Positions 10,732 through 41,043 of a DNA stretch of 41,043 nucleotides are shown here, in pieces. The stretch is from Ignavibacteria bacterium. GTDB lineage: Bacteria; Bacteroidota; Ignavibacteria; UBA10030; UBA6906. Position numbers and translations under genes: made by a program. The stretch's first letter is position 1. Each line of letters starts with the position of its first letter. Location: the NCBI GenBank assembly GCA_003251275.1, contig QKGJ01000132.1:1-41043 (forward strand), read 5' to 3'. Below the pieces are notes generated by a model, which made no database searches, was not told the origin of the DNA, and was given only the letters and a program-made list of their open reading frames with translations.

Positions 10732-10804
10732 TGCCCCCAACCGGATTCGAACCGGTGTTACAAGCTTGAAAAGCTCGTGTCCTAGGCCTCTAGACGATGG
10801 GGGC
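10732..10804 (-). tRNA. tRNA-Glu (anticodon UUC)
   Basis: The reverse complement reads GCCCCCA-TC-GTCTAGAGGCCTAGGACA-CGAGC-TTTTCAA-GCTTG-TAACA-CCGGTTCGAATCCGG-TGGGGGC-A. The cloverleaf is near-identical in layout to E. coli tRNA-Glu, with anticodon loop U-U-UUC-A-A. CCA is not encoded. Confidence 0.9.
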
Positions 10805-11266: not shown

Positions 11267-11340
11267 TGACCCCGCCGCGACTCGAACGCGGAACCTACAG
11301 CTTAGAAGGCTGTTGCTCTATCCAATTGAGCTACGGGGCC
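11267..11340 (-). tRNA. tRNA-Arg (anticodon UCU)
   Basis: The reverse complement reads GGCCCCG-TA-GCTCAATTGGATAGAGC-A-ACAGC-CTTCTAA-GCTGT-AGGTT-CCGCGTTCGAGTCGCGG-CGGGGTC-A. The anticodon loop is C-U-UCU-A-A. Confidence 0.9.
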
Positions 11341-11508: not shown

Positions 11509-11583
11509 TCGGGGCGACAGGATTCGAACCTGCGACTTCTTGCTCCCAAAGCAAGCGCTCTAGCCGGGCTGAGCTACGCCCCG
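11509..11583 (-). tRNA. tRNA-Pro (anticodon UGG)
   Basis: The reverse complement reads CGGGGCG-TA-GCTCAGCCCGGCTAGAGC-G-CTTGC-TTTGGGA-GCAAG-AAGTC-GCAGGTTCGAATCCTGT-CGCCCCG-A. The anticodon loop is U-U-UGG-G-A. Confidence 0.9.
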
Positions 11584-30794: not shown

Positions 30795-31472
30795 ATGACG
30801 AAGTATCAACCTGTTCCGCTCGAATTCACCCGCATCGATCAAGGCCAGCAACGGCGTCGGGCGCGCGAATTCTTCGAACAGTGCAATTGTCGAAGGACGG
30901 TACGCGAGTATTCCGACCAGGCTGTTCCGCGCGAAATCATTGATGATATTATTCGAACAGCGGGAAGCGCCCCTTCAGGTGCGAACAAACAGCCATGGAA
31001 GTTTGTCGTGGTGGATGATCCGGAGATCAAGCGGAAAATCCGTCTCGCAGCGGAGGCAGAAGAGCGGGAGAGCTACGATCATCGTATGCCCGATTCCTGG
31101 CTGGCTGATCTGGAAGAACTTGGTACCGACTGGCACAAAGAATTCCTGGAAGTCGCTCCGTATCTGATCGTCGTGTTCAAGGAAAAGTACAGAGTCGAAC
31201 TGGGAATCCAGAAGAAAAACTACTACACCGATGAATCCGTGGGGATTGCCTGTGGATTTCTTCTGGCTGCAATCCACAATGCCGGCCTCGCTTCTCTGAC
31301 GCACACGCCGAGTCCCATGAATTTTTTGCGGGAGATACTTCAGCGCCCCTCCAATGAAACGCCCTTCCTGCTTATTCCGGTGGGATACCCCGCAGAGAAA
31401 GCCGTTGTCCCCGACATTGACCGAAAGCCTCTCGAAGAGATCCTCATCCGGAATATCCAGTCGACGCCTTGA
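30795..31472 (+). CDS. Nitroreductase-superfamily flavoprotein, iodotyrosine deiodinase (IYD)-like
   Basis: 225 aa. RRTVREYS...SAPSGANKQPWKFVVVDDPEIKRKIR...ERESYDHRM...TDWHKEFLEVAPYLIVVF...YYTDESVGIACGFLLAAIHNAGL...LLIPVGYPAEKAVVPDIDRKPLEEI is collinear with animal and Bacteroidota IYD as I remember them. Confidence 0.75.
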   Translation: MTKYQPVPLEFTRIDQGQQRRRAREFFEQCNCRRTVREYSDQAVPREIIDDIIRTAGSAPSGANKQPWKFVVVDDPEIKRKIRLAAEAEERESYDHRMPDSWLADLEELGTDWHKEFLEVAPYLIVVFKEKYRVELGIQKKNYYTDESVGIACGFLLAAIHNAGLASLTHTPSPMNFLREILQRPSNETPFLLIPVGYPAEKAVVPDIDRKPLEEILIRNIQSTP

Positions 31473-31585
31473 TCCCATTCCAAAGGTCTCGGCTTCCCTG
31501 ACCGCTCGATTGCTCCCCATCAACACTTCCTTGTTATTCAAAATTGGATTGGGTATATTTTTCAGAAATATCAACAGGATTACTT

Positions 31586-33307
31586 GTGAATCGACTTGAA
31601 CTGAAGGCGTTGGCTATCGCCTTCATTGTTGCGATAATGTTTGGCGGATGCTCAACGTCAAAAAACGCGGCAACAGATCAGCCTCAAACAGCGCAAACAC
31701 AGGTAGATGAGCGTTCGCGCGATATCGCTCTTCAGCATTTCATCAACGGGTCGGTGCATGAATCGAATGGCGAGTATGCTGAAGCAATTCTCGAATTCCA
31801 GGATGCGCTACGCTATGATGAGAACGACGCAATCTATTTCGCTCTGGCAAAGAATTACTCTCTCCTCAATAAACACACCCTTGCAATTGAAGCAGGACGA
31901 AAGGCGATAGGGTTCTCTCCTGATAATCTGGACTATCGACGAACCTTGGCGGAAATCTACGTCCGGGCATTCGAGATCGACTCCGCAGCTGCGCAATATG
32001 CCCAGATTGTCCAGCGAGACTCTTCCAAGATTGAATCCTGGTATAATCTTGCACGTCTCTATCAGGGCCGCACCCCGCTGAAAGCCCTCGAAGTGTACGA
32101 AGCCATTGTGAACCGGTTTGGCCCGCAGTGGGATGTGTTGCTGCAAATGGCGGAACTGAATAATTCGCTGCAACAATATGGGAAGGCGGCCGAGGCGTTG
32201 CGGATGATGTCGGAGATAGACCCGAGCAACAATGAGCTCAAGCGATCTCTTGCACAGGCGTACACTCGGTCAGAACAGTATGAGAAGGCGCTCGAAATCT
32301 ACACCGGATTGCTGGAACTCCAGCCGGAGAACATCGAGTACATCGCGGAGGCGGCGGGAGTGTACCTGGTACGAAAGGAATATGAGCGCGCAGCTGAAAT
32401 GTTCGAGGGGATTCTCGCCCAGGATTCCGTGGTCGTGGATGCTAAACTAAGGATTGGCGAAATCTATTTCGGGCAGATGGAAAAAGACTCGACACTGGTT
32501 CCTCTGGCGCGTTCGATCTTTCTGCGAATTCGCGACAAGCATCCCGAAGATTGGCGCCCATACTGGTTCCTGGGGGCGATTGCAGCCCTGTCAAAAGAAG
32601 AAACAGTGGCAGTTGAAAATTTTCGAAAAGTGACGGAATTGGCAAGCTGGAACGCCGACGGATGGGTTTACCTTTCGTCTGTTTTTCTCGAGAAGAACAA
32701 TTATGAGGAAGTTGCCACCATCCTCGAATCTGCGGTGAAAGCAGTGCCCGAAGATTTTCGAGTAAATTTTTTCCTTGGCGTTGCACTTAATCGGTTGGGG
32801 AAGAACGAAGAGGCTGCCCGGTCTTTGGAAAGAGCGCGGGGAATCAACGGCGACGACATGGGAGCGCTTTCACAGCTGGCCCTGGTATATGACACTATGA
32901 AGAAGTTCGATGAGTCTGACCGGCTGTACGAAGAGGGATTGAAGAAAGAACCCGACAACCATCTCCTTCTGAACAATTACGCATACAGTCTTGCGGAACG
33001 AAATCTTCAGATCAACAGAGCTCTTGCAATGGCGAAGGAAGCCGTTGCCGCACAACCGGAGAACCCCTCGTATCTCGATACTATCGGGTGGATTTATTTC
33101 AAGCTTGGAGACTATGAAGAAGCGGAGAAAAACATCTCAAAGGCAGTTGCGCAGGGAGACGTGAGCGCCGTTGTTCATGAACACCTCGGCGATGTGTACT
33201 ACATGTTGCGGGATGCAGAGCGCGCATTGGAACAATGGAACATCTCGTTGAAGATTGACAGTAGTAACCAGGAATTGAAAGCCAAGATCGATCGCGGAAG
33301 GTTATGA
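31586..33307 (+). CDS. TPR-repeat lipoprotein
   Basis: The ORF opens at 31544 (TTG). I prefer the GTG at 31586, which gives VNRLELKALAIAFIVAIMFGGC with an FGGC lipobox. Multiple 34-aa TPR units follow (e.g. AEAILEFQDALRYDENDAIYFALAKNY). The start codon is uncertain. Confidence 0.8.
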   Translation: MNRLELKALAIAFIVAIMFGGCSTSKNAATDQPQTAQTQVDERSRDIALQHFINGSVHESNGEYAEAILEFQDALRYDENDAIYFALAKNYSLLNKHTLAIEAGRKAIGFSPDNLDYRRTLAEIYVRAFEIDSAAAQYAQIVQRDSSKIESWYNLARLYQGRTPLKALEVYEAIVNRFGPQWDVLLQMAELNNSLQQYGKAAEALRMMSEIDPSNNELKRSLAQAYTRSEQYEKALEIYTGLLELQPENIEYIAEAAGVYLVRKEYERAAEMFEGILAQDSVVVDAKLRIGEIYFGQMEKDSTLVPLARSIFLRIRDKHPEDWRPYWFLGAIAALSKEETVAVENFRKVTELASWNADGWVYLSSVFLEKNNYEEVATILESAVKAVPEDFRVNFFLGVALNRLGKNEEAARSLERARGINGDDMGALSQLALVYDTMKKFDESDRLYEEGLKKEPDNHLLLNNYAYSLAERNLQINRALAMAKEAVAAQPENPSYLDTIGWIYFKLGDYEEAEKNISKAVAQGDVSAVVHEHLGDVYYMLRDAERALEQWNISLKIDSSNQELKAKIDRGRL

Positions 33308-34080
33308 AACTAGACAAGAGTTGGTTGTCTCTGATCATAATTCTTTTCGTTCTCTCCTGTTCACCAAAACCAGTCTCGGTTCTCCTGGATACAGAGAGGA
33401 CGTCAGCGGCAACGTTAATCCGATTGGTGAATGCAAATGAACAGAAAATTCACACCCTTGTCGGGAGCGGACATATCACATTCGATACTCCCGAACTGAG
33501 CGGTACCGCCGCGTTCAGCATTACGATGAAGAAGCCCGACTCTCTTCTTGCTCTCTTTGAAGGCCCGTTCGGAATCGATCTGGGGACGCTCTTCCTTAGC
33601 AGGAATCGGTACCTCATTTATAACAGTTTTGAGAATACGGCGATCACCGGGATTCCAGGGTCGGAAACCTTAAAACTCGCCTTACCAATTGACCTGACAT
33701 ACGATGAGTTGTTGAGTGCCTTTTCGGGGACCATACAGCTGCCGGATGGCCAGAGTGATCTGGCGGGGTACGTGGTCGACGACGAGCAATTTCTTCTCAC
33801 CTATGATTGCGGAAATCTCGTCTGCAAATACTGGGTCGATGCGAGCTATTTGCTCGTAACATCACAACAGGTGTTGGATCAGAGCGGCCAGGTGATAATG
33901 GAGGTCAGGTTCTCGTCGATTCGGGAGCAGGATGCGATTCATGCACCGCGGCGTATCAGACTAAACTTTCCCGAGCGAGGGCGACAGGTGGCGCTCCAAT
34001 ACGGTTCTCTCACGTTGAATGAAGATGCCCCCTCGTTTCAGTTCTCTATTCCTTCCAATGCCCATGTGATCACGCGATGA
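33304..34080 (+). CDS. LolB-like/DUF4292-type outer-membrane lipoprotein
   Basis: 258 aa with the signal peptide plus lipobox MKLDKSWLSLIIILFVLSC. It is translationally coupled (ATGA) on both sides. Its position between a TPR protein and an M23 peptidase matches a conserved Bacteroidota arrangement (family call from memory). Confidence 0.6.
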   Translation: MKLDKSWLSLIIILFVLSCSPKPVSVLLDTERTSAATLIRLVNANEQKIHTLVGSGHITFDTPELSGTAAFSITMKKPDSLLALFEGPFGIDLGTLFLSRNRYLIYNSFENTAITGIPGSETLKLALPIDLTYDELLSAFSGTIQLPDGQSDLAGYVVDDEQFLLTYDCGNLVCKYWVDASYLLVTSQQVLDQSGQVIMEVRFSSIREQDAIHAPRRIRLNFPERGRQVALQYGSLTLNEDAPSFQFSIPSNAHVITR

Positions 34081-35282
34081 TTTTTTGGGCGCGAGTGACA
34101 GCTGCCGTGTTTCTTCTTGCGATGCTGGCGAACGGCATGCCGCGGACCCCACAACAGGAACTTGAAAAGCGGCAATCAGAACTTCAGGGTTTGCGCGACC
34201 AGATCAAGGCTCTCGAAATCAAGATGGATGAACAGCAGCGAAAGGAAACAGCGACACTGGAATTGCTCGATTCTTATGATAAGAAGGCTTCGCTTATCAA
34301 AACACTGCTGACAAGACTTCGTCGTGAAGAAAAAGTAATTCAAGCCAGTGTCGATTCCACCCGATCGGAGATGAATGTTCTCGAAGACCAACTTACCTTT
34401 TTAAAGGCACAGTATGCGAACTACGTCCGTTCGATGTATAAGTCGGGTCGCATGCACGAGATCGATCTCCTTCTCTCGTCGAATTCGATAAATCAATTCT
34501 ATGTCCGGGCTGAGTACTTTCGCCGTTTTGCCGACCAGAGAAGAGAAGATGCGCGCAGGATTGGAATGAAAAAGGCCGAGATTGGAGATATCCAGAACCG
34601 GCTGCAACTCCAGCTTGCAGAAGAACGGCGCTTGATTGCAGAGAAAGGAACAGAAGAAGACAGGCTGGCTCTATCGGTTTCAGAGAGGAAAGATATTCTT
34701 CAACGGATCCGAAAAGACCGGAAGTTGGTACAAAAACAAATGGACCGACAAATGAAAGCGGCGAAGGAGCTTGAGGGCCTCATTGAGAATCTCATCGTTG
34801 CAGATAAGATGAGAAAAGACAAGGAGGCCGAAGAGGTAAGCAAGGGTGTGTTTCCACAACCTCCCCTGGTGACTGGAGCCTTTGAATCAAGGAAAGGTCA
34901 ACTGCGATGGCCGGTGACGAAGGGCGCCGTGGTGGCGAAGTTTGGCAACCAACGACATCCGACACTCGGAACCGTCACGCAGAACAATGGCGTAGATATC
35001 GCGGTGGAAAGCGGCTCTCAAGTGACGGCGGTTGCGGAAGGAGAAGTATCGGCAATAACTTGGCTCCCGTCCTATGGCAACGTTATCATCATAAATCATT
35101 ACAACGGGTATCGGACGGTGGCGACACACCTTGCACAGATTTTTGTCGTGGTCGGACAAAAGGTCTTTGAAGGAACTCCGCTGGGGGAAAGCGGGGAATC
35201 GCTGGAAGGTCCCCGGGTTCATTTCGAAATCTGGAAGGACCGCGAAAAACAAAACCCTGAAGTCTGGCTTGCCAAGCAATGA
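34077..35282 (+). CDS. Coiled-coil M23 peptidase-domain protein (EnvC-like murein hydrolase activator)
   Basis: 401 aa with a signal peptide and a roughly 230-aa coiled coil. The LytM/M23 domain is GVDIAVESGSQVTAVAEGEVSAI...GNVIIINHYNGYRTVATHL...GPRVHFEIW. Confidence 0.85.
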   Translation: MIFWARVTAAVFLLAMLANGMPRTPQQELEKRQSELQGLRDQIKALEIKMDEQQRKETATLELLDSYDKKASLIKTLLTRLRREEKVIQASVDSTRSEMNVLEDQLTFLKAQYANYVRSMYKSGRMHEIDLLLSSNSINQFYVRAEYFRRFADQRREDARRIGMKKAEIGDIQNRLQLQLAEERRLIAEKGTEEDRLALSVSERKDILQRIRKDRKLVQKQMDRQMKAAKELEGLIENLIVADKMRKDKEAEEVSKGVFPQPPLVTGAFESRKGQLRWPVTKGAVVAKFGNQRHPTLGTVTQNNGVDIAVESGSQVTAVAEGEVSAITWLPSYGNVIIINHYNGYRTVATHLAQIFVVVGQKVFEGTPLGESGESLEGPRVHFEIWKDREKQNPEVWLAKQ

Positions 35283-37837
35283 AGCCGCAACGTTTTCTTC
35301 TCCCCGCTCTCTTCACCATTCCGACCGTTCTTCTGGTTGTGTTCCTCCGCGGTCCACTCGAATCCATAGAGAGTGGTTTCACTGACTGGAAGTATCAGTG
35401 GAGAGGCGAGCGGTTGGCCGATACAAACATCGTCATCATTTACAATGATGATAATGCCGTGAAGGCGCTCGGCGGAACGATTCGTCGTAATTTCTACTCC
35501 CTGATGGTCAAGGCACTCACGGACCTCAAAGTCAAAGCGATTGGCATCGATGTTTTTTTCGATTCTGCGGATCCGGTCTATCCCGAGTACGATGATCTAT
35601 TGGCAAGGATGATTGGCAACTCCGGGAAGGTTGTTCTGCCGTCCTATTTCAAACTTGTCGGCGGTCCTGATCAGGACGGTATTCTCCGAGGCGAGGAATA
35701 TCATCCGCCTTTTGCAAGGATTGCTGAACATGCCGCCTTGATTGGCCATGAAAACCTGGGTGAACACTTTGAGGTTCCGGTGGTCATCCGGATAGGTGAC
35801 TCACTCGTTCCGGCGTTCGGTTTTCAATTGTTAAACCTCTATGCCGGTGGACCGCATTCTTTTGCGTCACTTGTTGCCCAGGGGAATGTCCGGCTCAATT
35901 ATCCGGGCCGCATGACTTCATTTACTTCTTACCCATTTCTCGAAGTGCTGAAATCGTACGACGCACTCCGTCGCGATGAGCCAACGAATATTCCAGTTAG
36001 ATCACTGAAGGATAAGATAATCCTTGTCGGAGTTGTTGGCGACGGTACGGGCAAGCTTTTTGAAACACCGTTTGACAGAAGGTTTCCTGCCTTGGGAATT
36101 CATGCGGTGTTTATCGATAACGCTCTCCAGGGAACATTTATCAGCGACGTGGGTTTTCCGATCTTGCTCGTTGTCGCGTTCCTGGTAGGCGTGCTTTGTG
36201 CGATTTCCGTTTTGTTCTTTCCTTCACCACGCAGCCGTATTCTTGCATTCGTGGTTTTGGTCTTTCCTGTCCTTCTTTCCATAATTCTCTTTTCCTGGTG
36301 GAACACGATTCTGCCGATTGGCCCGATCTTTTTGGTTGGACTTGTCTCCCTTGGCGCATCATTCTTCTACAAACATAGGTTGGTGCGCGCCCAGGTTGAT
36401 TCCTTAACCGTGGAACGAATTGAAATCATAAACCAGCTAAAGGACCGGGAAGCGAAGGTTGCATTGCTTGAAAAGGAGTTGCTTGACATTTCACACGTCC
36501 GGACGGCTGACCGGACGACAGAGTTGCTGGAGGAGATTCGACGGCACAAAGCTGAAATAAAGACCCTTTCGTCACGAGCCGATGATATGGAAGTCTTTGA
36601 AGAGACGGAACAAGGGTATTCGCGGGAGATGGCAACGTTCGAAGAACTGGTCTACTCTCCCGCAGGGGCCCTGAAAAACGTGATTGAGTTCATCCAGAAG
36701 ATTGTTGCCAGCGACGCGCCGGTTCTCATCCTTGGAGAAAGTGGAACGGGCAAAGAGCTCGTCGCCAAGGCAATTCACCGTCGCAGCGAGAGAAAAGAAA
36801 ACCCATTCATTGCGTTGAACTGCGGAGCGCTCTCTGAAAGCCTGCTCGAAAGCGAGTTATTTGGGCATGAAAAGGGAGCGTTCACCGGCGCGGTAAAAGA
36901 TAAGATGGGTCGTTTTGAGTTGGCCGATGGAGGAACCATCTTTCTGGACGAGATCGGCGAGGTGAGTGAAGCATTTCAATTGCGTCTCCTCCGCGTTCTG
37001 CAAGAAGGAGAGTTCGAAAGAGTAGGAGGGACTAAGACAATTAAGGTGCAAGTTCGCGTTCTTGCTGCGACAAACAAAGATCTGAAAGAACAGGTGAGAG
37101 TCAAGAAGTTTCGTGAGGACCTGTACTACCGCTTGAACGTCTTTAGTATCGACCTGCCTCCTCTTCGCGATCGGCAAGAGGATATTCCTCTTTTGGTGCG
37201 ATATTTTCTCGGTAGAGAAGACGGCAGCTTGAAAGTTTCAAAAAACGTGATGGACTCATTCACTAATTATTCGTGGCCGGGAAATATCAGGGAATTGGAG
37301 AGCGTAATTCGGAGGGCGGCCCTGCTCGCAAGGGCGGAAAAGCGTACCATGGTGAACATGAAAGATCTCACCGAAGACCTTGTGCAGGCAGTTCAGGGTT
37401 CGATTGCAATTGAAGAACAGATCCTTGAATCCGTTCGCGAAAAGGGGTTTTCGCGGAGTTCGGTCTCAGAAACCGCAAATGAACTTGGTGGACTGAACCG
37501 CGGGACGGTGGCAGAATACTTGCGCGGGCAGTGTCTTCAAGCGTTCACCGAGCAGGGTTTTGACGTTGAGCGAGCGGTGCAGCACATCTCCCTTACCGCT
37601 GACCAGGAGGTCAACATGCGGGTACGGAAAAAACTTCTCGATTACATCAATAATATCAGTGAAGCGGTAGATACCGCCCAGCCTTGGGAGGCAGCGCGGG
37701 TCGGGCTTAAACCGAAGACGAAGAATCTGCCTCAACGGTATCATCCCTATCTCGAAAAGACGGCGGAAGCTCTTTATCGAGGCGTCATAAAACGCACGAG
37801 CCGGTTGCCGCAGAGTTCCGATGACGAAAGCGCCTGA
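35279..37837 (+). CDS. Membrane-anchored sigma-54-dependent transcriptional activator with an N-terminal CHASE2 sensor domain
   Basis: 852 aa. After an N-terminal TM helix comes a CHASE2-like region ([21 protein letters not shown]...[14 protein letters not shown]). Three TM helices span residues about 290-370, followed by a coiled coil. The AAA+ sigma-54 interaction domain has Walker A ([10 protein letters not shown]), an intact GAFTGA loop (EKGAFTGA), Walker B ([11 protein letters not shown]) and the R-finger region. A weak HTH lies at the C-terminus ([19 protein letters not shown]). Confidence 0.85.
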
Positions 37838-37846
37838 TTAATTCTC

Positions 37847-37875
37847 TTCCTGCACACTACCTTTTTTTCCCGCAG
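37847..37875 (+). promoter_or_regulatory. Candidate upstream activator sequence 1 (TTCCTGC-N15-CCCGCAG)
   Basis: TTCCTGCACACTACCTTTTTTTCCCGCAG. It shares the 12-mer TTTTTCCCGCAG and the left arm TTCCTGC with the site at 39115..39144. It ends 101 nt upstream of the -24 GG. Confidence 0.4.
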
Positions 37876-37974
37876 TATTGTTCAGTGGATTCTCCTCCGA
37901 ACCCGTGTGGAGCCGACTGATAAGTTCTTCGTTTGAAACATGTTAGGCGGTGCTTGAAGGTTGCCGCAAACCTC

Positions 37975-37990
37975 TGGCATGATGATTGGG
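37975..37990 (+). promoter_or_regulatory. Sigma-54-type -24/-12 promoter (imperfect -12) for lipoprotein paralog A
   Basis: TGGCATGATGATTGGG compared with the consensus TGGCACGrNNNTTGCW. The spacing is correct, and -12 reads TTGG instead of TTGC. It lies 57 nt upstream of ATG 38047. Confidence 0.5.
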
Positions 37991-38046
37991 ATATACCTCT
38001 CCAGCAAGAATAATCACATTTCATTTACATATATCAGGAGAGGATC

Positions 38047-39021
38047 ATGAAAGCCTTACACGCGTTGTTTGCCATTCTTGCGTTCGCAGGAATCGCCATC
38101 ACTGGATGTACGAAGGACGTAACTGCACCGGAGAATGAGCAGGCTCCGGCCGGAGTTACAAACGAAATCGAGTCGATGAAGCTCATGGCATCTCAGGATG
38201 CATTTGTCCAGAACGATGAGCTGACCTTCGAGGATCGCGAGATCGAACCGATGGAGACGGGAACATTCGGCAAGATTGAAGCCGAGATCACTCCACTGCG
38301 GTTCGGTAGATTCATTAACAGCGTGACAACGACAATAACCGCCACCATAGCACCTGGAGACAGCCTTGCGGTCGCTCACGTGCAAAAAGATATTGAGGGG
38401 ATTTTCAAAATCAAAGCTATAAATGGGGTTGGAGATACAGTGTTGGTGGAAAAACCATTTGAAGATCGAGCGACACGAAATGTTATCTTTAAACGTATAC
38501 ACCGCGATAATGCCCGATTTTGGAGAAACTGGATTCCCGTTGCAACATCTTTGGTTGATGGTGGCACGGTCTCAAATAGTCCCAGCCAAATTGACTTAAC
38601 AAAGCTGCAAATGTTCCTTCCGAACGGCGACACAGTGACGGTGACGGATCCGAACAGCTTCTACTTGCGCTACCGGTGGTTGCGCTTGTTTGATGGAGGA
38701 AGACTGGACATCCCGGAATTGAGAGGGGGCGATCGCGTGATTCTGCAGGCAACATTGGTAAGTGCATCTCCCGATACCGATTTCGTCGCGCTTCGTTTGG
38801 GATATGGACTGGGAAACCACCGTAGAACCCGGATGGAACTCGTCTCAGATGTCGACAACGGGGATGGAACATTTACTCGTGTGTACCAAAAAGCCTGGTT
38901 CTGTCATTTCCATACTGGATTCTTCCATGCAGGCGTTGTCGCAGTAACGAAGGAAACTCTCTTTGACGATTCGGCCCCCTATGCTGCGAGCTGGTGGGGG
39001 ATTCCTTATCGTGTGTTCTAG
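38047..39021 (+). CDS. Lipoprotein of unknown function, paralog A
   Basis: 324 aa. The signal peptide plus lipobox is MKALHALFAILAFAGIAITGC, and a GGAGAGGA RBS precedes the start. It is collinear with 39338..40330 at roughly 60% identity (by eye), including EQAPAGVTNE, AEITPLRFGRF, INGVGDTV, RNW(I/V)PVATSLVDGGT, FLPNGDT(V/I)TVTDPNS(F/Y)YLRYRWLR and the C-terminal WWGIPYRVF. Confidence 0.8.
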   Translation: MKALHALFAILAFAGIAITGCTKDVTAPENEQAPAGVTNEIESMKLMASQDAFVQNDELTFEDREIEPMETGTFGKIEAEITPLRFGRFINSVTTTITATIAPGDSLAVAHVQKDIEGIFKIKAINGVGDTVLVEKPFEDRATRNVIFKRIHRDNARFWRNWIPVATSLVDGGTVSNSPSQIDLTKLQMFLPNGDTVTVTDPNSFYLRYRWLRLFDGGRLDIPELRGGDRVILQATLVSASPDTDFVALRLGYGLGNHRRTRMELVSDVDNGDGTFTRVYQKAWFCHFHTGFFHAGVVAVTKETLFDDSAPYAASWWGIPYRVF

Positions 39022-39046
39022 GACTAACTGAAATACTCTCCACACG

Positions 39047-39075
39047 GAAGCCCGCCTTTGAAGCGGGCTTCTTGC
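39047..39075 (+). terminator. Rho-independent terminator after paralog A
   Basis: GAAGCCCGC-CTTTGAA-GCGGGCTTC followed by TTG. The T-tract is weak. Confidence 0.6.
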
Positions 39076-39114
39076 GTCATAGTTCGTTTGGACAGATGTG
39101 CATGAAAGATCTGA

Positions 39115-39144
39115 TTCCTGCGATCGAAGAGATTTTTCCCGCAG
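39115..39144 (+). promoter_or_regulatory. Candidate upstream activator sequence 2 (TTCCTGC-N16-CCCGCAG)
   Basis: TTCCTGCGATCGAAGAGATTTTTCCCGCAG. CTGCG and CGCAG form an inverted repeat. It ends 99 nt upstream of the -24 GG. Confidence 0.4.
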
Positions 39145-39241
39145 CTTTGCTCTTGGCAGAGCACCGTTAACCCCTGCCTCACCGATCGTAACTGCCCACT
39201 GGAAAAGGAGTTATAGAAAGAGCCTTCCACGAGCCCGATGA

Positions 39242-39257
39242 TGGCATGGGCATTGCC
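39242..39257 (+). promoter_or_regulatory. Sigma-54-type -24/-12 promoter for lipoprotein paralog B
   Basis: TGGCATGGGCATTGCC compared with the consensus TGGCACGrNNNTTGCW. GG and GC sit at the exact canonical spacing. It lies 81 nt upstream of ATG 39338. Confidence 0.65.
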
Positions 39258-39337
39258 GTTTTCAATGTGGTAGGGAAGAAAACGCAAAAGAAAGTAGTCA
39301 CAAAACAACATAATCAACAACACAGAGGGGTAACACA

Positions 39338-40330
39338 ATGAAAAAACAACTCGAAATCCTGTTCGGATTTGCGCTGATCGCAGGAATCATGTTGACTGGG
39401 TGTAAGGACAGCGCCGGTCCAGTTGACGATGAGCAGGCGCCAGCAGGTGTTACTAACGAAATGGATGCGATGAAATACTTCGCACTTCAGGATGAGTTTG
39501 TGAAGAATACGGAAGAAACAATCTCAGACGACAATCTCTATCCGGCAGATTACGGAACCTTCGGGAAGGTCACCGCGGAAATCACCCCGCTCCGGTTTGG
39601 TAGGTTTGTCACGAGCGTTACACGGACGGCAACGCCGACTATTCTTCCTGGTGATTCCATTGCAATCGTTCTTGTGGAAAAGGAAATCATGGGATTGTTC
39701 AAGATTCGTGGAATTAACGGGGTTGGGGATACAGTGACCATCGAAAAACCGTTCACTGATAATAGTACGCGTAACCTAGTCTTCAAACGAATAGATCGGG
39801 ACTCTCGGAGGTATTGGAGAAATTGGGTTCCTGTTGCCACGTCTCTTGTTGACGGAGGAACGGCTACGCCAAACGATAATATCGACATCACGATGGTTCA
39901 GCTCTTTCTTCCAAACGGTGATACGATTACCGTAACAGATCCGAACAGTTACTACCTCCGGTATCGTTGGCTGCGAATGTATGATGGTGGACGGAAGGAC
40001 GTTCCAGAGTTCTCCGCAAATCAACGGGCGATTCTCCAGGCCACCGTCGTGAGCGCTTCCGCTGATACGGATTTCGTGGCGTTGCGCTATGGTGTAGGCA
40101 CATTCCAGAAGCGCCGGATGAGATTGGCTCTCGTTTCGGAAGTGAACAATGGTGACGGCACGTATACCCGCGTCTATCAAACCAGGGATGGTGGTATGCC
40201 AGGGTTCGTCATTCATCCTCACAGAGGCTGGTTCCATGCCGCCGTGGATGCAATGACGCGCGAAACTCTGTATGACGATACAGCGCCGTACTCGGTCAAT
40301 TGGTGGGGAATACCTTATAGGGTGTTCTAA
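39338..40330 (+). CDS. Lipoprotein of unknown function, paralog B
   Basis: 330 aa. The signal peptide plus lipobox is MKKQLEILFGFALIAGIMLTGC, and an AGAGGGG RBS precedes the start. It is a paralog of 38047..39021. Confidence 0.8.
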   Translation: MKKQLEILFGFALIAGIMLTGCKDSAGPVDDEQAPAGVTNEMDAMKYFALQDEFVKNTEETISDDNLYPADYGTFGKVTAEITPLRFGRFVTSVTRTATPTILPGDSIAIVLVEKEIMGLFKIRGINGVGDTVTIEKPFTDNSTRNLVFKRIDRDSRRYWRNWVPVATSLVDGGTATPNDNIDITMVQLFLPNGDTITVTDPNSYYLRYRWLRMYDGGRKDVPEFSANQRAILQATVVSASADTDFVALRYGVGTFQKRRMRLALVSEVNNGDGTYTRVYQTRDGGMPGFVIHPHRGWFHAAVDAMTRETLYDDTAPYSVNWWGIPYRVF

Positions 40331-40340
40331 GCGATGGGAG

Positions 40341-40380
40341 AGGAAATGCCCCACAGAAAAATGGGGCATTTCCTTTCTTC
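40341..40380 (+). terminator. Rho-independent terminator after paralog B
   Basis: AGGAAATGCCCCA-CAGAAAAA-TGGGGCATTTCCT followed by TTCTTCC. The stem is 13 bp. Confidence 0.7.
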
Positions 40381-40423: not shown

Positions 40424-41043
40424 ATGATTAAGAAGAGACAAATACTCATTGCCCTCCTTCTGGGAGCGCTGCATGCAGGATGTGAGAAGCCCGGTCCCGT
40501 GGAGATCACTCCAATTGATCCCGATGATGTTCTGCTTGTCGAACAAATCGATCAAACACATCCTCAGTTTGACGGTCAGTCGGTCGACTCAACCGGCTTT
40601 CCGGCTTCATCATTATTTTCCTTCGCAGGATATTTTCTTGTTAATCATGTTTCGATCGATCGTGGTCAGGGAATTCGGTCATTTGCCTATTCCGCTGTGT
40701 TGCTTGCAGACAGAAATCGGCCAATATCGTGTGGTGATCAACGCATCCGCGGATATCATGGGATCTTTATTCCTTCGCTCAGCCTGAACGGTCAACCCAT
40801 GGTGATACTGCCGCATGTAATCCGCAACTGTGCAGACACAGTACAAGCTGGCTTCGAGTATTTGCTCGATCTCTCCTCCAACTATCAGCCAAATTCTCGT
40901 TATCGATGGGGGTTCCGATCGTTGGTCGGAGATTCGCTCAGCCTTGAGGTGAACACTCCGGACGCACTCACATTGCTCCGCCCCGCTGGAGGTTCTGTGC
41001 AGGGAAGAAATCAGATGATGCCGATTGAGTGGACAGGGATGGG
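40424..41043 (+). CDS. Lipoprotein of unknown function, 3'-truncated by the window edge (absent from the supplied ORF track)
   Basis: My own translation from ATG 40424 gives MIKKRQILIALLLGALHAGCEKPGPVEITPIDPDD... with an LHAGC lipobox. The frame stays open for 206 codons to the end of the window. A GAGGTGGGA lies about 25 nt upstream. Confidence 0.55.
   Translation, partial: MIKKRQILIALLLGALHAGCEKPGPVEITPIDPDDVLLVEQIDQTHPQFDGQSVDSTGFPASSLFSFAGYFLVNHVSIDRGQGIRSFAYSAVLLADRNRPISCGDQRIRGYHGIFIPSLSLNGQPMVILPHVIRNCADTVQAGFEYLLDLSSNYQPNSRYRWGFRSLVGDSLSLEVNTPDALTLLRPAGGSVQGRNQMMPIEWTGM

Follow-up and report, generated by a model that had tools for sequence, protein, structure and literature searches.

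We consider it probable that two tandem lipoprotein genes of an Ignavibacteria bacterium are governed by conserved sigma-54 promoters and phased-repeat enhancers, most likely served by the adjacent CHASE2-type activator. The genes lie within 41,043 nucleotides of contig QKGJ01000132.1 (assembly GCA_003251275.1), a stretch referred to here as the window. The lipoprotein family comprises 327 homologues in Ignavibacteria and Bacteroidota metagenome-assembled genomes (MAGs), none of which is annotated. A genome scan with the alignment of this family yielded 35 protein-selected loci, and a metagenome scan using the pattern TTCCCGCA-N13-TTCCCGCA-N76-106-TGGCAY-N5-TTG alone yielded 39 motif-selected loci. 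Our view of the regulon is limited to the window and to loci of ~20 kb or less. In about 70 related loci, TGGCAY-N5-TTGN and an upstream element stand out as islands of conservation amid intergenic DNA that cannot be aligned, and at the level of sequence this comparative evidence firmly establishes the cis-elements described below.

Promoters and enhancer arrays of the lipoprotein genes

Promoter P1 (TGGCATGATGATTGGG, 37975..37990, forward strand, -24 GG at 37976-37977) precedes the gene for lipoprotein 1 (38047..39021, forward strand) and promoter P2 (TGGCATGGGCATTGCC, 39242..39257, forward strand) precedes that for lipoprotein 2 (39338..40330, forward strand). They correspond to the -24/-12 elements of the original prediction, TGGCATGATGATTGG at 37975 and TGGCATGGGCATTGC at 39242, both of which are present in the sequence checked from 37600 to 39500. 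TGGCAY-N5-TTGS has two matches in 41 kb on both strands, located at exactly these positions, compared to 0.28 expected. P2 possesses the canonical -24 GG and -12 GC doublets 10 bp apart and is a full match within TGGCAC-N5-TTGCW. In P1, which is assigned by pattern and conservation, GG replaces the -12 GC. The -12 element of P1 is TTGG instead of TTGC, which lies within family variation. Because the fourth -12 base varies among relatives (TTGA 12, TTGC 12, TTGG 6 and TTGT 4), TTGG likely represents a normal variant. The promoters are also conserved, with TGGCAY-N5-TTGN located 70-105 nt before the ATG in ~33 of the 35 orthologous loci. When loci are anchored on the promoter, TGGCA and TTG reach ~1.9 bits per column and the flanking bases ~0. 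From these features we infer that P1 and P2 depend on sigma-54.

Alternatively, the -24/-12 look-alikes could be coincidental, with housekeeping-sigma promoters transcribing the lipoprotein genes. Between 31000 and 41043, 15 sigma-70-like matches are found compared to 8.2 +/- 3.3 in shuffles, at a low stringency of 9-of-12 positions. One weak match at 37986-38014 overlaps the P1 -12 region and, together with the TTGG of P1, represents the evidence in favor of such promoters. Against it stand the near-invariance of TGGCA and TTG at fixed spacing across ~70 loci with random flanks, the low stringency of the sigma-70-like matches and the presence of a GAFTGA activator gene in the locus, and we regard this explanation as extremely improbable.

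The upstream element shared by both promoters is present as originally reported, with TTCCTGCACACTACCTTTTTTTCCCGCAG at 37847-37875 and TTCCTGCGATCGAAGAGATTTTTCCCGCAG at 39115-39144. Its identical 12-mer TTTTTCCCGCAG has no exact occurrences other than those at 37864 and 39133, and the distance to the -24 GG, given as about 100 nt, agrees with proximal repeats starting 109 nt (P1) and 107 nt (P2) upstream. The CTGC...GCAG dyad symmetry assigned to the element was mistaken. Across the family, the element consists of two direct copies of one 9-mer located 21 bp apart, represented in the window by TTCCTGCAC at 37847 with TTCCCGCAG at 37867 and by TTCCTGCGA at 39115 with TTCCCGCAG at 39136. The apparent dyad is an artefact, as TTCCTGC and CCCGCAG overlap parts of two direct box copies. 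The upstream element is therefore kept among relatives at an enhancer-like distance, in the form of direct repeats and not of a dyad. Alignment of loci on the -24 element yields the conserved box (a)TTCCCGCA(C/G)TTC in 2-4 copies per locus, with a spacing of mostly exactly 21 bp. The proximal box usually starts ~105-110 nt from the -24 GG (range ~80-140) and extra copies at 9-12 bp spacings are found in some relatives.

A further box, unnoticed in the original prediction, lies upstream of the distal repeat. Positions -15 to -9 from the distal box read GCNTGAA at 0.7-1.2 bits per column, and the 8-mer starting at offset -16, once reverse-complemented, agrees with TTCCCGCA in 4.63 of 8 positions compared to a background of ~1.7. 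Judged by its sequence, this distal upstream box is an imperfect inverted half-site, TGCNTGAA-N8-TTCCCGCA, and it is this box, not the one proposed before, that constitutes the real inverted partner. In one relative (L056) the arrangement is a perfect palindrome. The proximal box has no inverted partner.

In the window, all boxes are located on the forward strand. Enhancer 1 consists of the distal inverted half-site CGCCTGAT (37831..37838, family consensus TGCNTGAA), which includes the TGA stop codon of the activator gene (37835-37837), the distal direct repeat TTCCTGCACACT (37847..37858, consensus TTCCCGCACTTC), with a position weight matrix (PWM) score of 8.9 bits, and the proximal direct repeat TTCCCGCAGTAT (37867..37878, PWM 12.6 bits), located 20 bp from the distal copy. 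Enhancer 2 consists of the distal inverted half-site TGCATGAA (39099..39106), where no stop codon is present, a weak distal direct repeat TTCCTGCGATCG (39115..39126, PWM 3.4 bits) and the proximal direct repeat TTCCCGCAGCTT (39136..39147, PWM 11.7 bits), 21 bp from the distal copy. The closest relative, L036, has TTCCCGCAA and TTCCCGCAT at the positions of the distal repeats of enhancers 1 and 2, respectively. As these copies show the consensus TTCCCGCA, the T in the TTCCTGC of the window likely represents a lineage-specific change. Conservation islands between the window and L036 coincide exactly with the boxes, a middle element and the promoters.

The specificity of the array was assessed with a box matrix trained on other genomes alone, a pair being defined by a spacing of 20-22 bp and a sum of at least 16 bits. 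In ~370 kb of DNA searched on both strands, 31 such pairs are located upstream of lipoprotein promoters compared to 3 elsewhere, and shuffled sequence contains 0.03 pairs per window. The P1 pair (8.9+12.6 bits) is the sole one in the window. Conserved at this distance from -24/-12, with pairs specific to those zones, the boxes agree with the geometry of an upstream activating sequence, for which sites ~80-150 bp upstream would be expected.

At P1 and in most orthologues the inverted half-site holds the activator stop codon, where the array begins. The array could thus be a 3'-end feature of the activator gene or its transcript, for example a terminator, an RNA element or a translational signal. 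However, P2, which follows lipoprotein 1, and orphan loci without a gene end also possess the array including the TGCNTGAA box, so that coding constraint alone does not account for the conservation of the half-site. The enhancer DNA lacks secondary-structure potential (hairpin z = 0.57 and -0.16), no Rfam family matches the array and the conserved quantity is the distance to the -24 element, which makes a 3'-end function very unlikely. The shared boxes could also be non-functional leftovers of the tandem duplication behind the lipoprotein paralogues, which are 61% identical and carry the shared 12-mer at equivalent upstream positions. MAFFT did not line up the shared elements of the two intergenic regions and an anchored comparison was used instead. 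Beyond the shared islands the two upstream regions proved unalignable despite the identity of the encoded proteins, indicating that the shared elements are not simple duplication remnants. The boxes are moreover kept in single-copy orthologous loci (~70 loci of other assemblies and metagenomes) with the fixed 21-bp spacing, by which a duplication remnant is effectively refuted.

Between enhancer and promoter lies an AT-rich middle element, TAAS-N17-STTA, present as TAAGTTCTTCGTTTGAAACATGTTA (37921..37945, forward strand) upstream of P1, where it is kept relative to L036, and as TAACTGCCCACTGGAAAAGGAGTTA (39189..39213, forward strand) upstream of P2, likewise compared with L036. Both represent candidate bending sites, the first of integration host factor (IHF)/HU type. 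Bending-protein sites in sigma-54 promoters usually sit between enhancer and promoter. Among 66 loci, the -60 to -20 region is AT-rich, and 15 loci carry TAAS-N17-STTA at -53/-54 or -63/-64 relative to the -24 T, compared to 1.5 in shuffles (maximum 7). The exact IHF consensus WATCAR-N4-TTR is found in 10 of the 66 loci compared to 0.17 expected. Both window promoters possess TAAS...STTA and lack the exact IHF consensus. The middle element probably assists DNA bending.

The CHASE2 activator and its proposed link to the array

The activator (852 aa, 35279..37837, forward strand) is encoded by the last gene of a four-gene operon with overlapping stops and starts (31544-37837, forward strand), preceded by genes for a tetratricopeptide repeat (TPR) lipoprotein, a DUF4292 protein and an M23 peptidase. 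Pfam and NCBIfam matches, hydropathy and sequence motifs define its organization. A predicted transmembrane helix at residues 5-23 is followed by CHASE2 (17-304, PF05226, E = 3.3e-30), three further predicted transmembrane helices (295-362) and a coiled-coil-like linker leading to the AAA+ core. The Sigma54_activat domain spans residues 463-624 (PF00158, E = 4.9e-72) with the Walker A motif GESGTGK at 486 and GAFTGA at 533, followed by an AAA lid (630-706) and a helical C-terminal domain (~710-852). The implied topology is that of a periplasmic sensor coupled to a cytoplasmic ATPase. The protein thus carries the AAA+ core with GAFTGA and the N-terminal sensing module of bacterial enhancer-binding proteins (bEBPs), the latter in an atypical membrane-embedded form. 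Databases hold only generic names for this activator. In the literature searched, we found no paper connecting CHASE2 with sigma-54 activators or relevant to membrane-anchored bEBPs.

The last ~150 residues of the activator are strongly conserved. The AlphaFold model of the C-terminal domain contains nine helices with a pLDDT of ~97 in the core, and a phmmer search of the domain against the PDB returned no meaningful sequence match. Among 1.84 billion representatives, the domain is found in 166 clusters, nearly always at the extreme C-terminus of 800-900-aa proteins, and 9 of 10 distant carriers tested contain CHASE2 and Sigma54_activat. By these sequence searches, the domain is specific to the family of CHASE2 and sigma-54-AAA+ activators. 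The NifA and PspF NCBIfam alignments reach ~residue 775 and a segment resembling a helix-turn-helix (HTH) is visible in the domain, so that the most economical reading of the sequence is a larger new domain into which a divergent HTH is built. The HTH-like segment and a basic KPKxKNLPQ(R/K)YH stretch are almost invariant, paralleling the invariant CCCGCA core of the box.

Gene order connects the activator with the array. The order TPR-DUF4292-M23-activator-lipoprotein is found in ~25 of 35 loci, down to ~40% activator identity, and the activator gene is located directly upstream of the array in 18 of the 39 motif-selected loci. This conserved order supports direct control by the activator. The original prediction had stated that the enhancer-binding protein directly controls both lipoprotein genes; synteny agrees with control, and it is from synteny that binding is deduced.

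Instead of the neighbouring CHASE2 activator, a different regulator encoded elsewhere might bind the array, such as another sigma-54 activator, an accessory protein or a repressor, with gene adjacency reflecting shared envelope function and not direct control. About 13 loci with array and promoter have no activator gene on the contig, five lipoprotein loci (L027, L029, L034, L047 and L060) lack an adjacent activator gene and the activator itself has no recognisable canonical DNA-binding domain, all of which speaks for a different binder. On the other hand, most loci, over ~40-85% protein identity, have the activator stop codon within the distal box, 10-20 nt ahead of the first repeat, and the C-terminal domain, exclusive to the activator family, equals the CCCGCA core in its invariance. 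In addition, sigma-54 activators typically act on neighbouring promoters, and the orphan loci may be trans targets of the same activator. We regard another binder as unlikely, albeit as the only one of the rival explanations that stays credible.

For the CHASE2 activator as the protein serving the array, the following mechanism can be proposed. Each lipoprotein gene would form its own unit, with a sigma-54 promoter activated from an enhancer ~100-145 nt upstream. The elements of the array, TGCNTGAA, 8 bp, the TTCCCGCA(C/G)TTC box, 21 bp (two turns) and the second box, would all lie on one helix face. On sensing a signal from the envelope or the extracellular space, CHASE2 would permit the AAA+ ring to oligomerise on the array, and DNA looping, aided by the AT-rich bend, would allow the ring to remodel the closed sigma-54 holoenzyme complex at -24/-12. 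With the first target located right behind the activator gene and the distal box overlapping the stop codon, a membrane-bound protein might find its site more easily, in the style of cadC-cadBA.

A number of observations weigh against this assignment. The -12 element of P1 is non-canonical, no rpoN gene is located within the 41-kb window, both distal boxes of the window score low, at 8.9 and 3.4 bits, and the repeats at P1 are spaced by 20 instead of 21 bp. HTH_8, the Fis-type domain, has no match at E<=1 in the window activator or 45 orthologues, and a Foldseek search of the C-terminal domain against the PDB returned no structural neighbour (best E 0.7, TM-score <0.25). As neither a recognisable Fis-type HTH nor a PDB match is present, DNA binding by the activator is itself putative. 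The link between activator and array consists of synteny and the parallel invariance of protein and DNA, and a comparison of repeat variants (ACCCCGCA/ATCCCGCA vs TTCCCGCA) with C-terminal residues such as QRYH/QKYH for co-variation is confounded by phylogeny. Finally, as arrays occur without an activator gene on the contig, adjacency to the activator is not obligatory and leaves room for another binder.

Probable target genes within and beyond the window

Lipoprotein 1 (324 aa) contains a signal peptide with lipobox Cys21, is predicted to be all-beta and has no Pfam or NCBIfam match. Its paralogue lipoprotein 2 contains 330 aa. In the AlphaFold model of the lipoprotein (pLDDT 85.6), a helical hairpin at the N-terminus precedes two beta-sandwich domains, and Foldseek of this model against the PDB returned generic beta-sandwich resemblances only (query TM-score <0.3). 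Going by this model, the lipoproteins may represent a new surface-protein family. Terminator-like hairpins follow both genes on the forward strand, the first (GAAGCCCGC...GCGGGCTTC, 39047..39071, -11.7 kcal/mol, z = -3.5) being kept in L036 and the second (GGAAATGCCCCA...TGGGGCATTTCC, then TTTCTT, 40341..40374) reaching -15.6 kcal/mol (z = -4.3). Since a strong hairpin follows each gene, each appears to form a separate transcription unit. For lipoprotein 2, the predicted 5' leader (39268-39337) is A-rich (AAGAAAACGCAAAAGAAAGTAGTCACAAAACAAC...) and near-identical in the closest relative, above the surrounding intergenic DNA. The next gene, with its ATG at 40424, runs past the window end at 41043 and encodes another lipoprotein (MIKKRQILIALLLGALHAGCE). 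In two relatives (L036 12383-15983 and L038 11121-15604), conserved unannotated genes of ~290, 655 and 235 aa follow the lipoprotein gene or genes, the ~655-aa gene showing a weak TraF_2 match. These downstream genes might be co-regulated by read-through or possess their own promoter.

The array is not confined to lipoprotein genes. A lipoprotein homologue is located directly downstream in 23 of the 39 motif-selected loci. In the ~13 loci whose fetched contig carries no activator gene, array and promoter, with the TGCNTGA box, precede an unrelated gene (L043, L045, L061, L073, L044, L051 and L079/L053, together with L070, L072, L068, L075, L076 and L077). These orphan lineages are mostly GC-rich (58-66%). 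The genes concerned encode CarboxypepD_reg proteins with type IX secretion system (T9SS) tails, a T9SS-tailed protein of beta-lactamase fold, a DUF4382 lipoprotein and others. The locus had originally been taken for a compact, self-contained regulon. As the same design precedes unlinked T9SS-cargo, beta-lactamase-like and DUF4382 genes elsewhere, compactness is not supported as a general property, a conclusion that concerns these other lineages. In the Ignavibacteria MAGs L027 and L029, an activator homologue is found at ~200-1650 and the lipoprotein at ~5974, with ~4.3 kb between them. Despite this gap the enhancer and promoter lie directly upstream of the lipoprotein gene, indicating that they travel with the target and not with the activator.

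The operon context, together with T9SS cargo among the targets elsewhere, is suggestive of a function in remodelling the envelope or surface. In the operon, the DUF4292 protein is LolA/B-like and the M23 peptidase with its coiled-coil N-terminus is EnvC-like. The order of the operon, kept in ~25 related loci, suggests that a module for the envelope or for cell division is coupled to the sensor. The lipoprotein and T9SS targets would fit the idea of sigma-54 governing the cell exterior, and the regulon offers a route to the function of several envelope protein families currently labelled hypothetical.

Relation to known systems and neighbouring features

The system resembles NtrC, NifA and PspF in its -24/-12 promoter, its enhancer ~100-145 nt upstream, the intervening AT-rich IHF-like element, the AAA+ Sigma54_activat domain with GAFTGA loop and lid and the location of the activator gene beside its target. 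In contrast to those proteins with their cytoplasmic receiver, GAF, PAS or V4R modules, the activator here is membrane-integral and carries CHASE2 as its sensor. No HTH_8 is detectable, the C-terminal domain being a larger helical bundle, and one imperfect palindrome with 21-bp-phased direct repeats takes the place of two palindromic dimer sites. For Nla28 of Myxococcus xanthus, 2-5 tandem imperfect 8-bp half-sites with ~25-bp spacers have been proposed upstream of -24/-12, the box CT(C/G)CG(C/G)AG being palindromic and its spacing variable (PMC9765219). Nla28 provides a precedent for the array as a sigma-54 activator with a proposed tandem half-site enhancer. It differs in being a soluble response regulator, while the box described here is asymmetric (TTCCCGCASTTC) and its spacing fixed at 21 bp.

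A membrane-integral regulator with an adjoining target promoter also recalls ToxR and CadC, which are membrane one-component proteins with an OmpR-type winged helix and a single transmembrane helix, and are sigma-70-dependent. Both combine a periplasmic sensor with a cytoplasmic DNA-binding output, putative in the present case. In contrast, the activator described here is a four-pass AAA+ sigma-54 activator that must oligomerise. CHASE2 proteins (PF05226) likewise possess one flanking transmembrane helix before CHASE2 and three after it. The outputs described for CHASE2 comprise kinases, cyclases and GGDEF/EAL modules, from which the sigma-54 activator output differs.

The system type, consisting of a sigma-54 promoter, an enhancer and an AAA+ activator, is textbook, while the variant appears undescribed, with its membrane-integral CHASE2 protein, a family-specific non-Fis C-terminus, an asymmetric array phased by 21 bp whose half-site overlaps the stop codon, and targets among surface proteins of the Fibrobacterota-Chlorobiota-Bacteroidota (FCB) group. 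We see roughly even chances that these proteins form an undescribed family of membrane-integral one-component CHASE2 sigma-54 activators with a new DNA-binding domain, a distinct enhancer grammar and a surface-protein regulon of Ignavibacteria/Bacteroidota-like lineages. If true, this would tie envelope sensing directly to transcription by sigma-54 at the membrane. While Proteobacterial sigma-54 systems are well understood, those of the FCB group are barely charted, and the locus supplies for a widespread unnamed activator family a cis-regulatory grammar that is complete, conserved and testable. As the activator is embedded in the membrane and lacks the canonical Fis-type domain, two mechanistic questions arise, namely how a four-pass protein can build its AAA+ ring on DNA and by which fold the asymmetric TTCCCGCASTTC box is read. 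With the consensus, the regulon can now be annotated in hundreds of MAGs.

Upstream of the activator operon, a third exact match to the pattern TTCCTGC-N17-CCCGCAG, derived from the element of the original prediction, is found at 31365-31395 with ~0 expected. As it lies ~180 nt before the TPR gene heading the operon, it was examined as a candidate for autoregulation. It was rejected as an enhancer because it is located inside a nitroreductase-like coding sequence (PFLLIPVGYPAE) and its boxes score only 3.7+1.3 bits. Autoregulation through this site was rejected as well, given that no correctly spaced -24/-12 element is present downstream and that in relatives, within 10-kb flanks, the DNA upstream of the TPR gene contains no box pair. 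The match is probably a coding-sequence coincidence arising from an ad hoc pattern. A candidate Bacteroidota-type housekeeping promoter (TTG...TATATTTT) is located before the TPR gene at 31531-31561 and suggests a GTG at ~31586 (signal peptide ...MFGGCS) as the true start of this gene instead of the TTG at 31544. Elsewhere in the window, three tRNA genes are clustered on the reverse strand (10732-10804, 11267-11340 and 11509-11583).

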